DNA from: a virus
Lineage: Duplodnaviria; Caudoviricetes
Length of the DNA: 64,000 nt
Direction: 5' to 3' (one strand)
Virus record (IMG/VR): IMGVR_UViG_3300025502_001322
Span: 1 to 64,000 of that record
Positions 59,179-63,441 of the stretch are shown here, piece after piece (position 1 is the stretch's first letter; every line of letters begins with the position of its first letter). Below the pieces are notes generated by a model. The model had not been told where the DNA came from, searched no databases, and saw nothing but the letters and a program-made list of their open reading frames with translations. The position numbers and the translations under genes are program-made.

Positions 59179-59541
59179 ATGAGAAAACTACTATTACTAC
59201 TACTCTTGCCGTTTACAGCACAAGCAGAATACGCAGACTGGGACAAATACGACAAAGAGTTGTTTTGGATGTCAACCACAGCTATTGCTGTGGATCACTT
59301 AACCACAAGAGATATGGCTAGTAGGTATGATGAAGGATACGTAGAACACAATCCTTTACTGGGCAATAGGCCCGATACAGATACGGTGGATCTGTTTTTT
59401 CTATTAAACTATGTTACACATTACTATCTAACAGACTATTTACAAGGCGAACATAGACCTGTGTATCTAACTGCTAGGCTCGTGGTCAACGGCCTAGCTT
59501 CTGCAAACAATCTTAAGATAGGGTTGGGACTTAGGTTTTAA
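59179..59541 (+). CDS. Secreted/membrane hypothetical protein
   Basis: Signal peptide; E.NPLLG..P motif. Confidence 0.55.
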   Translation: MRKLLLLLLLPFTAQAEYADWDKYDKELFWMSTTAIAVDHLTTRDMASRYDEGYVEHNPLLGNRPDTDTVDLFFLLNYVTHYYLTDYLQGEHRPVYLTARLVVNGLASANNLKIGLGLRF

Positions 59542-60463
59542 AACAGTCTTTAATATTGTTATCATACTCATTATCAAAGAACAGAGCTTGGTTAGCCCTA
59601 AGTTTATTAATATTATCTAGGTAGAATTCAGTTAGGGCATGCTTGTGTGTGCCCATACAGAATTTACGCAAACACTGACAAAATTGTTCCAGTCTATTAT
59701 AATCATCAAGCACTTGGTCATATGTAAAATCAAATAAATCGCCCAACCAGAACCCTTTTGCACCCAGTTTTTTAACTTGGAAGGGCGCACTATATAGCAT
59801 TACTAAGTGACCCCTACTTAATGCATGGTACGTACTAAGGCCCAACTGAGGCTCTTCAATCACACTTACCATGGTGTGTATAAAATCACCACCATCAGTA
59901 ACTTGTCCTGAATAGTCACTAAACACCAGGTCCCTTAGTTCTGAAACACCGCCATCAAATTTCAGTATATTGCCAATATTTTTCTCTGCCAGTAGCATAG
60001 GCATATGGTAATCCTGATATTGCCAGAACTTTGTGGGATCCTGTACGTCTTGTGTGGCATAGTACTTAAAATGATTCCATGACCAGTCATATCTAACAGT
60101 GTTGTATTCTGTTTCAACTAGTTTGTCAGTAACAAGCACAAGTTCTTTATCGTAGAATAGTTTTTTAACTTCGGTGTAGTCTACTTCAGGGTAACCTATA
60201 TCCCATAAGATAATCCTTTGGCAAAACCTATAGTGTGCCCGTAACCTGTCTCTGTAATACTGATTCTCCAACCACACAGGATCACCTGACACATAATATG
60301 GTGGCAACCAACCTATTGTGCTTTCAGGATGGAACTCAAATTCTATGTTATGGAACAACGACATGGCGTTGGTAAAATAATTAAATTCTTTTTCCAGTTT
60401 TTGATAGGCACTGTCTTCTCTAGGGAAAACAAATTTAATTCCAGGCTGTAGTGTTAGTTTCAT
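59531..60463 (-). CDS. Hypothetical protein, distant relative of 26808..28013
   Basis: C-terminal G.WL..LFD.TYD...DD..R resembles 26808 ORF. Confidence 0.5.
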   Translation of the reverse strand: MKLTLQPGIKFVFPREDSAYQKLEKEFNYFTNAMSLFHNIEFEFHPESTIGWLPPYYVSGDPVWLENQYYRDRLRAHYRFCQRIILWDIGYPEVDYTEVKKLFYDKELVLVTDKLVETEYNTVRYDWSWNHFKYYATQDVQDPTKFWQYQDYHMPMLLAEKNIGNILKFDGGVSELRDLVFSDYSGQVTDGGDFIHTMVSVIEEPQLGLSTYHALSRGHLVMLYSAPFQVKKLGAKGFWLGDLFDFTYDQVLDDYNRLEQFCQCLRKFCMGTHKHALTEFYLDNINKLRANQALFFDNEYDNNIKDCFKT

Positions 60464-60583
60464 TATGCTTCTTTAATGAATATCAGTATGTACTTTAGGA
60501 TAATCTCTCTATATACTTATGTTAAATACTAGCGTTGGAACATTGTTTTAACATTAATTAATTAATCACTGAAAGGAAATACT

Positions 60584-60655
60584 ATGTGGAGCAAGCCCGA
60601 GTACACAGAAATGCGTTATGGCTTCGAAATTTCAATGTACATTGCACATCGCTAA
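60584..60655 (+). CDS. pqqA: PQQ precursor peptide PqqA, 23 aa (not in track)
   Basis: MWSKPEYTEMRYGFEISMYIAHR*: W.KP...E.R.GFE..MY with ExxxY; GAAAGGA SD; TAAATA at 60523-60528. Confidence 0.92.
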   Translation: MWSKPEYTEMRYGFEISMYIAHR

Positions 60656-60680
60656 TATACATTAATTTTTAAAGAAACAA

Positions 60681-60709
60681 AAAGTGCTCACTTCGGTGGG
60701 CATTTTCTT
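60681..60709 (+). terminator. Terminator after pqqA
   Basis: AAAGTGCTCAC-TTCG-GTGGGCATTTT (cUUCGg tetraloop). Confidence 0.75.
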
Positions 60710-60736
60710 GACACAAACATTTTCTACCTGTATAAT
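60708..60736 (+). promoter_or_regulatory. Consensus sigma70 promoter, leaderless geometry
   Basis: TTGACA-17 nt-TATAAT; ATG 5 nt downstream. Confidence 0.8.
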
Positions 60737-60741
60737 AAGGC

Positions 60742-60990
60742 ATGAAAAAATACATTCACGTTAATCAAAACGTAATTCGCAGTAACTTGAAGAAGCAACG
60801 ACTCGATCCTGAGTTTGTAGATGTGGAACCTACCATAACTATCAAAGAAGGAAAATCTAACACATACTGCCACGAAGTAGAAATACTAGGTCCCAGCAAG
60901 GTTGTTTACGGCGAACACGGTAAACAGATACTAAGTTGTGGTGCCAGAGTCGTAATTGAAACAGACAGTAACATTAAAATAATAAGATAA
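60742..60990 (+). CDS. Hypothetical phage protein
   Basis: IHVNQ..I..N.K...YCHEVEILGPSK...LSCGARV.IET. Confidence 0.6.
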   Translation: MKKYIHVNQNVIRSNLKKQRLDPEFVDVEPTITIKEGKSNTYCHEVEILGPSKVVYGEHGKQILSCGARVVIETDSNIKIIR

Positions 60991-61000
60991 GGAGAAGCAT

Positions 61001-61546
61001 ATGATCGAGCAAAAGAAAATTCCCACCATTACCTTTATGTGTAGGGTAGGTGATGAAGAGCCTGAAGACGGCGGATGTCCAATTGGTGGGGAATTCATAC
61101 CCACAACCACAGACCAATTATTTGCTGGCAAGAGGGTAATTGTATTTTCATTGCCAGGAGCATTTACTCCAACCTGTAGTTCATTACAACTGCCTGCCTT
61201 TGAACAAGCACATGAAGACTTTTATGCACAAGGCATTGACGAAATTTATGTATCCAGTGTTAATGACAGTTTTGTAATGAATGCTTGGGCACAACACATG
61301 GGCATTAAAAAAGTAAAAGTAATTCCAGATGGCAACGGAGAGTTTGCTGACTCATTGGGTATGTTAGCAGACATGAGTGTTATTACCTTCGGTAAGCGAT
61401 CAAGACGTTTTGCTGTTGTTATTAACGATGGAGTGGTTGAACGCAGTTTTGTGGAACCAGATGGGTCCGAAGAGAATCCAGATCCATATGGAGTAAGTAG
61501 TCCTGCGCACATCCTCAAAGTATTGTCTGACGCACCTGGTGATTAA
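61001..61546 (+). CDS. Peroxiredoxin (Prx5/AhpE-like)
   Basis: PGAFTPTCS peroxidatic motif, SVNDSFVM.AW, DGNGEF, RSRR. Confidence 0.92.
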   Translation: MIEQKKIPTITFMCRVGDEEPEDGGCPIGGEFIPTTTDQLFAGKRVIVFSLPGAFTPTCSSLQLPAFEQAHEDFYAQGIDEIYVSSVNDSFVMNAWAQHMGIKKVKVIPDGNGEFADSLGMLADMSVITFGKRSRRFAVVINDGVVERSFVEPDGSEENPDPYGVSSPAHILKVLSDAPGD

Positions 61547-61549
61547 TAA

Positions 61550-61735
61550 ATGCACTTAGAGCGGTGCGCAAGATGTAACTCGTTGCTCAAGTGTGCGGCT
61601 CGTACACCAGAGGTTGAATGCTGGTGTACGATTATGCCACCCCTTGTCGAAATCAATAAGGATCAAGGTTGTTACTGTGGTCAGTGTTATAGACAGATTC
61701 TTAATGAACAAAACACACAAGAGTTAAGAGGCTAA
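61550..61735 (+). CDS. Cysteine-rich CWC family protein
   Basis: CARC...C...CWC...CYC..C. Confidence 0.7.
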   Translation: MHLERCARCNSLLKCAARTPEVECWCTIMPPLVEINKDQGCYCGQCYRQILNEQNTQELRG

Positions 61736-61879
61736 ATGAAAACTTGGATAGTTTTACAAAAACGAGACAAGAACGTTAACTACAAATACATATCATTATT
61801 GCATTGCAATAAATACCACTGTGGAGTCAGGAGTACTTCACAAATTTAAATGCGTCAAGAGTACGCAGAAAGGTAATAA

Positions 61880-62217
<338 letters not shown>

Positions 62218-62218
<1 letters not shown>

Positions 62219-63441
62219 TGGACTTAGCATATAGTTTAGACACATTCTACTTCCTGGTATGCGGAGCCCTGGTCATGTTCATGGCGGCAGGCTTTACAAT
62301 GCTAGAAGCAGGTATGGTTCGTAGTAAAAACGTAGCAGAAATTATCACCAAGAACTTTGCACTGTATGGTGTTGCATGTTTGATGTATCTATTATGTGGA
62401 TACGGAATCATGTATGGTTCAGGAGAAGGCTGGGTACCTGGGTTCGGTACACTGATCGGCGCCGACAATACTGTAGCAAGTGAAGAGGCTTACTACAGTG
62501 TTCTGAGTGACTTCTTCTTCCAAGTGGTATTTGTTGCAACTGCAATGAGTATCGTAAGTGGTGCTGTAGCAGAGCGCATCAAGTTATGGAGTTTTCTATT
62601 ATTTGCTGTGGTGATGACAGGCTTTATCTATCCTATCCAAGGATTTTGGAAATGGGGAGGTGGTGCATTAGATCAACTTAACTTTTTGGACTTTGCTGGC
62701 TCAGGTGTTGTACACCTAGCAGGAGCAAGTGCCGCACTAGCAGGTGTTATACTGTTGGGCGCACGTAAAGGCAAGTACGGACCAGACGGTAAACCTAGAG
62801 CTATTCAGGCCAGTAACTTGACACTGGTAGGACTAGGCACATGGGTGTTGTGGTTAGGTTGGTTTGGTTTCAATGGCGGAAGTCAATTGCAAATCACTGG
62901 TTTACTGAATGCCAATGCAGTAGCACAAATTTTCGTCAACACAAACATGGCGGCAGTTGGTGGCCTACTAGCGGCAATGATAGCAAGTAAACTGATCACA
63001 AAGAAGACAGACTTAACAATTACACTTAATGGCGCACTGGCAGGTTTAGTTGCTGTAACAGCAGAACCACTCACAGGATCTGCACTTGCAAGTACCTTTA
63101 TTGGTGCAGTAGGTGGCGTACTGTGTTATGCCAGTATCATAACACTGGATCGTGTGTTTAAGATAGACGACCCAGTTGGTGCAATTTCAGTGCATGGCGT
63201 TGCAGGAATTTGGGGACTAATAGCAGTAGCGTTTACTAATCCTGATGCAGGGTTTGGTAACCAAATATTTGGTGCAGTTGTTATCTTTGCATTTGTATTC
63301 TCGACCAGTTTTGTTACTTGGTACATTATCAAGAAAGCAATCGGGTTAAGAGTGGATATTAAAGAAGAACATGAAGGCTCAGACATGGAAGAATGTGGAC
63401 TTGTAGCATATCCAGAATTTAGGATGTCAAACAAAATTTAA
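62218..63441 (+). CDS. amtB: Ammonium transporter
   Basis: FFQVVF, DFAGSGVVH, WFGFNGGS, IDDPVGAISVHG (twin His). Confidence 0.95.

Follow-up and report, generated by a model that had tools for sequence, protein, structure and literature searches.

We analyzed the first 64 kb (hereafter the window) of a 289,070-bp IMG/VR virus record, in which a pqqA gene encoding the 23-residue precursor peptide of PQQ lies on the + strand at positions 60584..60655, stop codon included. The frame runs from ATG to TAA over 23 codons, and its peptide reads as quoted in an earlier, sequence-only reading of this DNA, which had taken the short open reading frame for PqqA and pointed to its Glu-x3-Tyr pair. That identification proved real. 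The peptide scores above both curated cut-offs, with 30 bits against PF08042 (gathering cut-off, 21.1; E 5e-7) and 36.9 bits against the NCBIfam equivalog TIGR02107 (cut-off, 20; E 2e-9), and the similarity to PqqA families that the reading had proposed as a check is thus present. In a six-frame search of the genome, the gene scored 34.5 bits and was the single copy in the whole 289-kb assembly. The cross-link pair is present as Glu15-Ile-Ser-Met-Tyr19. PqqD recognizes the leader of PqqA (W-x-x-P ... R-x-G-F), and the phage peptide carries all of the conserved leader residues before its core (W2, P5, R11, G13, and F14). Ser17 and His22 of the phage peptide, on the other side, were found in no other of the 72 viral copies compared. 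A Shine-Dalgarno sequence, AAGGA, is read at 60573-60577 (+ strand), 6 nt 5' of the ATG, as had also been claimed, and equivalent AGGAG or AAGGA sites lie 5' of every phage pqqA examined.

The DNA around the gene is that of a phage. Genes for a baseplate wedge protein, an endolysin, and a family-B DNA polymerase (the last at 36.5 kb) lie upstream of pqqA in the window, which also encodes an exonuclease, and a Gp23-type capsid gene is found at 155 kb of the record (E 1e-99), such that phage genes flank pqqA on both sides; the possibility raised earlier, that the flanks might prove to be bacterial, is answered by these baseplate, polymerase, endolysin, and Gp23 genes. The DNA polymerase has its closest relatives in jumbo phages: it is 51.6% identical to that of Sinorhizobium phage Phosso, 45% to that of Agrobacterium phage Atu_ph07, and 43% to those of the Rak2/121Q group. 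The source contig is a jumbo myovirus of salt-lake metagenomes, and the phage was detected in about 19 "salt lake metagenome" runs from 2017-2018. HMM searches of the 289-kb record found no pqqB, pqqC, pqqD, or pqqE and no PQQ dehydrogenase, and tblastn with PqqB-E from two bacteria likewise found none (best E 0.04, to a radical SAM motif only); CheckV puts the completeness of the record at ~80%, and the absence of pqq genes covers that part only. The statement that no other pqq gene is in the window therefore extends to the whole record, and within this incomplete record pqqA is truly stand-alone on phage DNA. Linkage of pqqA to pqqBCDE in the same genome was not found here, and such linkage is typical, not defining, of PqqA, given that copies outside the operon are normal in bacteria (PMC4109929 and the bacterial loci that we fetched). 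A phage that carries no pqqB-E would depend on its host for the PQQ enzymes. Taken together, the identity of the gene, its phage context, its stand-alone status, and the anatomy of its transcription unit, which is described below, are upheld.

As judged from motifs and predicted folding, pqqA is a self-contained unit, consisting of an upstream box with a -10-like element, an overlapping late-type promoter motif, a ribosome-binding site, 23 codons, and a terminator. Downstream of the stop codon, an A+T-rich spacer of 22 nt leads to an intrinsic terminator at 60678..60710 (+ strand), which is predicted by folding to consist of a G+C-rich stem of 8 bp, capped by a UUCG loop and extended by A-U pairs, followed by a U-run (stem GTGCTCAC, loop UUCG, stem GUGGGCAU, and then UUUUCUU). 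The fold has an energy of -14.7 kcal/mol (z -4.2), and 0 of 200 shuffled sequences folded as well, which upholds the claim that the gene has its own UUCG terminator. A simple terminator scanner did not list this hairpin despite its G+C-rich stem and U-run, and no Rfam family matched within 59400-61100. A sigma-70 consensus site, TTGACA-17-TATAAT (60708..60736, + strand, 12/12 match), the predicted promoter of the next unit, starts within the terminator U-run, 5 nt 5' of the ATG of an 82-aa open reading frame, and this perfect site marks what we read as the downstream end of the pqqA unit. The whole record holds 49 sigma-70 sites matching at 11/12 or better, 22 of them in the intergenic 8% of the genome; 11 are perfect, and many of these stand right before gene starts. 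A second promoter class in the phage record, of the late type, is made up of NNTAAATA motifs.

The region directly 3' of pqqA (60742-63441) holds a series of auxiliary-like genes, namely, the 82-aa open reading frame, a Redoxin/AhpC-TSA gene, a gene for a 61-aa Cys-rich CWC protein, and genes for P-II (GlnK) and Amt. The P-II and Amt genes overlap by 1 base, as in cellular glnK-amtB operons, and other large phage-like contigs encode Amt proteins with 73-93% identity to this one. The P-II gene (61945-62199) is matched, with 1 difference in 255 nt, by a contig of 258 nt that was assembled from a marine metatranscriptome library (2016), a match by which transcription is not proven. No RNA run was among those listed for the pqqA unit. 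In the marine metatranscriptome run X20, a small share of a 6.5-kb stretch was covered, with contigs on P-II/Amt and the exonuclease and none on pqqA, and this coverage says nothing on pqqA expression.

Comparison with related phages allowed us to follow pqqA and its neighbors separately. A sister phage, L176 (record Ga0255763_1000378), is represented by a 49.5-kb contig that is syntenic with positions 52,263-64,864 of the record at 69-82% nucleotide identity. It keeps pqqA at the same position with 12 nucleotide changes and 3 amino acid changes, a comparison that is a cleaner test of selection than the pattern-collected set considered below, and its hairpin and spacer are 92% identical to those of the window. 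In L176, an HNH endonuclease gene is inserted just after the pqqA terminator, and the CWC, P-II, and Amt genes are absent. In the same lake runs, a second jumbo phage, L011, is ~10 times more abundant than the source phage; its similarity to the window is confined to pqqA with its terminator (139 nt, 87%) and to a relic, 35 nt long, of the amt 3' end. The stretch L011:6126-6697 contains the HNH gene as in L176, followed by the amt relic, which is 97% identical to window positions 63400-63434. The comparisons with L176 and L011 indicate that pqqA is retained while neighboring genes come and go, and, given the HNH insertion and gene loss in L176 and the amt relic in L011, the site after the terminator looks like a hot spot for insertion and deletion. 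Between the window and L011, the spacer and terminator (60656-60706 versus L011:6073-6123) differ at 1 of 51 positions, and the pqqA coding sequence differs at 14 of 72 (Fisher p 0.004), with the coding differences falling in two blocks around an identical 24-nt center. Recombination with other copies of pqqA could account for this contrast, as could an RNA element under strong constraint.

A late-type promoter with a TAAATA core had been proposed for pqqA, and the motif is indeed present upstream of the gene as GTTAAATA at 60521..60528 (+ strand; core at 60523-60528). It agrees with the T4 late consensus TATAAATA at 6 of 8 positions, and the full consensus itself occurs only three times in the 64-kb window. 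The absence of the full TATAAATA at this site argues against a late promoter, but the distribution of the core across the genome speaks for one. On a crude gene map of 328 open reading frames, 70 of 215 TAAATA sites (33%) lie 3-75 nt 5' of a start of a gene on the same strand, compared to 6-15% for 14 hexamers of the same composition, 10% for the reverse complement, and 4% for background; TAAATA is also the rarest among the 15 same-composition hexamers compared. When octamers were considered, the sites placed upstream of genes numbered 13 of 29 for AATAAATA, 10 of 19 for TATAAATA, 8 of 11 for GATAAATA, and 8 of 15 for GTTAAATA (p 4e-8; 7 of 14 when the pqqA site is excluded). The sister phage L176 has ATTAAATA at the position of GTTAAATA, and the motif falls within a block that is 94% identical between the two phages, in a surrounding alignment that is 72% identical. 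TAAATA was also found within 120 nt upstream in 31 of 77 viral pqqA loci versus 4 of 77 controls. The enrichment before genes makes the motif a credible late-type promoter of this phage and a plausible one for pqqA, as had been proposed. A sigma-70 promoter for pqqA was considered and discarded, as the + strand of the intergenic region, 120 nt in length, contains none that matches at 9/12 or better. Approximately 880 nt upstream, a sigma-70-like site directed at pqqA (59675-59703, + strand, 11/12) lies inside a 310-aa gene on the opposite strand (59531-60463) and could yield an antisense transcript reading into pqqA.

An alignment of the regions upstream of pqqA from the window, L176, L015, L016, and L011 revealed a further block, common to all five and located ~100 nt before the ATG, which we refer to as the pqqA box. 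In the window, it is the imperfect palindrome TAATGA-ATA-TCAGTA(TG) at 60474..60490 (+ strand), starting 110 nt before the pqqA ATG, and its core is TAATGA-N3-TCAnTA. An exact match to TAATGANNNTCANTA occurs once in the 289-kb genome, at 60474-60488, and the idea that the box is a repeated phage promoter class was ruled out, given that no second copy was found in this genome. The strict form of the box was found upstream of 41 of 76 viral pqqA genes (54%) versus 60 of 3476 control windows from the same loci (1.7%), and upstream of 12 of 90 bacterial pqqA genes (13%) versus 1.2% of controls; with the looser core, the counts were 59 of 86 viral and 50 of 90 bacterial pqqA genes. Positions left free by the search pattern are conserved as well, with A at +14 in 95 of 106 instances. 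In bacteria, the box takes the form of a 17-bp palindrome, CTCATGA-AAA-TCATGAG, or CTAAGGA-AAA-TCCTTAG in Methylophaga. In TMED22, the metagenome-assembled genome (MAG) with the closest PqqA, the box lies between pqqA and a gene for a REC+GerE (NarL/LuxR-type) regulator, which forms a pair with a HAMP-PAS histidine kinase. The gene order there (L092:2439-5756) is histidine kinase, REC+GerE gene, pqqA, and then a cytochrome b561 gene, with a second pqqA on the opposite strand at a distance of ~5 kb; two pqqA copies arranged in this way, on opposite strands and ~5 kb apart, recur in four more Burkholderiales MAGs. LuxR-type regulators control pqq genes in Pseudomonas (PMC12997753). No GerE protein is encoded by the phage record.

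The spacing between the box and a -10-like element is also shared among these phages. In the window, the -10-like hexamer TATACT (60512..60517, + strand) lies 38 nt after the box start and aligns with TATACT in L176, TATAAT in L015 and L016, and TACAAT in L011; across viral loci, -10-like hexamers cluster at +38 (12 cases) and +40 (14 cases) from the box. No -35 hexamer accompanies the -10-like element of pqqA, and at these offsets the box sits about where a -35 element would lie. We regard the box as a candidate operator of a host NarL/LuxR-type response regulator.

The gene has relatives in many other viral genomes. When the PqqA peptide was compared by tblastn with 50,697 phage records, 13 of them matched, of which 9 are cultured Methylophilales/Methylophilaceae phages (four genomes of Melnitz, and Venkman, MEP301, MEP401, MEP402, and P19250A); the others were one uncultured podovirus, two bacterial contigs mislabelled as phage, and one match that was noise. 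The true phage records have an intact pqqA of 23-24 codons with a ribosome-binding site, and in the cultured Methylophilales phages the gene is mostly unannotated, in agreement with the expectation that it is easily missed by annotation. In Melnitz-1 (L003, MZ577095.1 74848-74943), a "hypothetical protein" is annotated antisense over the unannotated pqqA, and likewise in the Melnitz genomes, while no annotated feature lies over pqqA in Venkman, MEP301, MEP401/402, and P19250A. The matches in "Acinetobacter phage MD-2021a" were rejected as phage pqqA because they are bacterial pqqABCDE contigs filed as phage, and they were used as a positive control; one such record (L009, CAKLQF020000010.1) carries ppk and the full pqqABCDE and looks like a contig of a bacterial chromosome. 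A pattern scan of IMG/VR gave at least 577 confirmed contigs with a pqqA relative. Among the best 80 of these at least 577 loci, all frames are intact, the peptides are of 51 distinct kinds, no pqqB-E gene lies within 6 kb, and no frameshift or loss of Glu15 or Tyr19 was found. Across 72 distinct viral copies, W2, P5, R11, G13, F14, E15, M18, and Y19 are invariant (Glu15 and Tyr19 also in all bacterial copies fetched), and the pooled pN/pS over the 72 distinct coding sequences is 0.22 with synonymous sites near saturation, although both the viral and the bacterial comparison sets were gathered by peptide patterns that include the conserved core, so that the sampling itself accounts for some of the apparent invariance and some of the low pN/pS. 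The pattern of substitutions indicates that viral pqqA is under purifying selection.

With regard to the host, the evidence points in more than one direction. The closest cellular PqqA peptides (19/23) belong to Burkholderiales/Betaproteobacteria MAGs of 1.6-4.2 Mb with two pqqA copies each, and XoxF-family PQQ dehydrogenases above the curated cut-off were found in TMED22 and in 14 of the 20 relatives searched with it. Every cultured pqqA phage returned by our search infects Methylophilales. A peptide of 23 residues is too short for its similarity to settle the host question. The phage Amt is 63-64% identical to those of Pseudohongiella, Methylophaga, and UBA2675 and 71% identical to that of a 2.17-Mb cellular ENA contig with the same operon, compared to 30-42% for betaproteobacteria (30-40% for the relatives of TMED22). 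By these identities (63-71%), the P-II/Amt pair appears to be gammaproteobacterial, in contrast to the Burkholderiales-like PqqA. The Methylophilales phages and the XoxF-bearing MAGs fit the suggestion of a methylotroph or another host that depends on PQQ but do not prove it, and the P-II/Amt pair points to gammaproteobacteria. The host is probably a PQQ-using proteobacterium of the saline lake.

PqqA is a substrate, not a catalyst, of PQQ synthesis, and one peptide is spent for each PQQ; PqqD delivers the peptide to PqqE, a radical SAM enzyme that links Glu and Tyr, and a peptidase, PqqB, and PqqC finish the synthesis (PMC12997753). Methylophilaceae have 3-12 pqqA copies beside a single pqqBCDEFG set (PMC4109929), and orphan and tandem pqqA genes were frequent in the bacterial loci that we fetched; on the basis of these copy numbers and arrangements, it can be argued that precursor supply is what cells scale up. 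We consider it likely that the phage carries a functional pqqA that resupplies the one consumable of the host PQQ pathway. In the course of infection that we infer, the phage would make the 23-residue PqqA in the infected cell, with expression driven by a host activator, the phage late promoter, or both. Host PqqD/PqqE, the peptidase, PqqB, and PqqC would then convert the phage peptide to PQQ, one peptide per PQQ. The phage would benefit in that PQQ-dependent periplasmic dehydrogenases, and with them respiration and energy supply, would be kept going during its replication. Only the precursor would be carried because it is the sole part of the pathway that is consumed stoichiometrically. The sequence-only reading had arrived at the same proposal of precursor supply, and it stands here as the best explanation of a stand-alone gene under purifying selection with a multi-copy precedent in cells, rather than as an observation.

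We weighed this resupply of the precursor against four other explanations. The peptide might be converted to PQQ with the benefit lying in redox protection, where PQQ, together with the peroxiredoxin-type Redoxin encoded next door, would serve as antioxidant or redox buffer. The Redoxin/AhpC-TSA gene (61001-61546) does lie 350 nt 3' of pqqA, and the adjacency is kept in L176; however, a terminator and an independent sigma-70 promoter lie between the two genes, the neighbors differ at most other viral pqqA loci, and cultured pqqA phages follow methylotrophy in their host range, and we therefore think this explanation unlikely. It is slightly less probable, in our judgment, that the cassette hinders the host, either because the peptide competes for PqqD/PqqE or because amplified boxes titrate the activator of the PQQ regulon. 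In keeping with such titration, the box closely reproduces the bacterial operator and would multiply as the phage genome replicates, but it stands at a fixed distance from the -10, like an activating site, and the strictly conserved cross-link residues and purifying selection are those of a substrate, whereas an inhibitor would not need both residues.

The case that pqqA is a neutral passenger, recently captured host DNA without a role in the phage, draws on the tiny size of the gene, its host-type operator, and its place in a variable region by a site of homing-endonuclease insertion. Retention at the same position in sister phages of only 72-83% nucleotide identity argues against it, as do the purifying selection on pqqA, its recurrence in several unrelated phage lineages, and flanks that are more strongly conserved than its synonymous sites, and we rate this case as more doubtful again than interference with the host. 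Least probable of the four is that radical SAM enzymes encoded by the phage use PqqA as their substrate and make from it something other than PQQ. Several radical SAM proteins are encoded in the phage record, and L011 has radical SAM genes near pqqA. The likeness of the phage enzymes to PqqE is limited to the radical SAM core, however (best score 15.8 bits against a cut-off of 381; tblastn E 0.04), which leaves them unsupported as PqqE; no PqqD or RRE domain was found in the phage record, and the small cultured pqqA phages lack such radical SAM enzymes. Resupply of the consumed precursor thus remains our preferred reading of the locus. As a more tentative extension, to which we give somewhat less than an even chance, pqqA may travel between co-infecting phages as a full cassette (host box, -10, pqqA, and terminator) that is switched on by the two-component regulator of PQQ and alcohol oxidation in the host and is backed in this phage by a late promoter. 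Such an exchange, if true, would explain why the 3' flank differs so little from that of L011 relative to the coding sequence.

Prior reports of viral pqq genes had been anticipated, and one was found: Coutinho et al. (2020, Microbiome 8:163, PMC7678222) described PqqA in T4-like Lake Baikal phages and proposed it as an auxiliary gene boosting PQQ. Viral PqqA has also been placed among viral phosphorus-cycling genes in a 2026 study. As in the Baikal phages (PMC7678222), pqqA is found here on an uncultured low-G+C T4-like phage with radical SAM genes elsewhere in the genome. The Baikal population, however, encodes a methanol dehydrogenase and was assigned Methylophilaceae hosts, whereas our record has no PQQ dehydrogenase and comes from a salt lake, and the Baikal report does not include the promoter, operator, and terminator anatomy described here. 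The Methylophilales phages (Melnitz, Venkman, MEP301, MEP401/402, and P19250A) are similar to our phage in having a stand-alone pqqA of 23-24 codons with a ribosome-binding site, at 52-59% peptide identity, and several of the cultured ones share the upstream TAATGA box, but they are small or mid-sized phages of OM43 or LD28 hosts, unlike the jumbo phage studied here. The papers describing these phages do not mention pqqA.

Among cellular genes, the chromosomal pqqA copies of methylotrophs (PMC4109929; tandem in Methylophaga) resemble the phage gene in that precursor genes have been multiplied apart from pqqBCDE and each is followed by a hairpin. The pqqA genes of the Burkholderiales MAGs have the same palindromic box, by a NarL-type two-component system. 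These bacterial copies are cellular, with the box 100-160 nt from the ATG and a -10-like element seemingly further from the box, whereas phage copies have the box 60-120 nt before the ATG, with the -10 at an offset of +38 or +40. A GerE-domain response regulator governs pqq in the Pseudomonas AgmR/PedR1/ErbR and PedS2-PedR2 systems (PMC12997753), which is reminiscent of the regulator directly upstream of the box and pqqA in TMED22; no binding site is common by sequence to the Pseudomonas systems, as far as checked. What is added at this locus is the statistics on the late promoter, the syntenic sister phages with retention of the gene, and the host-type operator box, whose retention by phage pqqA copies is, as far as we have seen in the literature searched, an addition in its own right.

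In summary, viral pqqA is an economical auxiliary gene, in that 69 coding bases would resupply the sole consumable of a multi-enzyme cofactor pathway on which the oxidation of methanol and alcohols by abundant aquatic bacteria depends. Given that annotation pipelines systematically miss pqqA, its ecological weight is under-counted. The box carried by many phage copies makes it possible to test whether a metabolic gene of a phage is connected to a signaling circuit of the host, and it could act as a sequence handle linking pqqA phages to the PQQ-using hosts that they infect.
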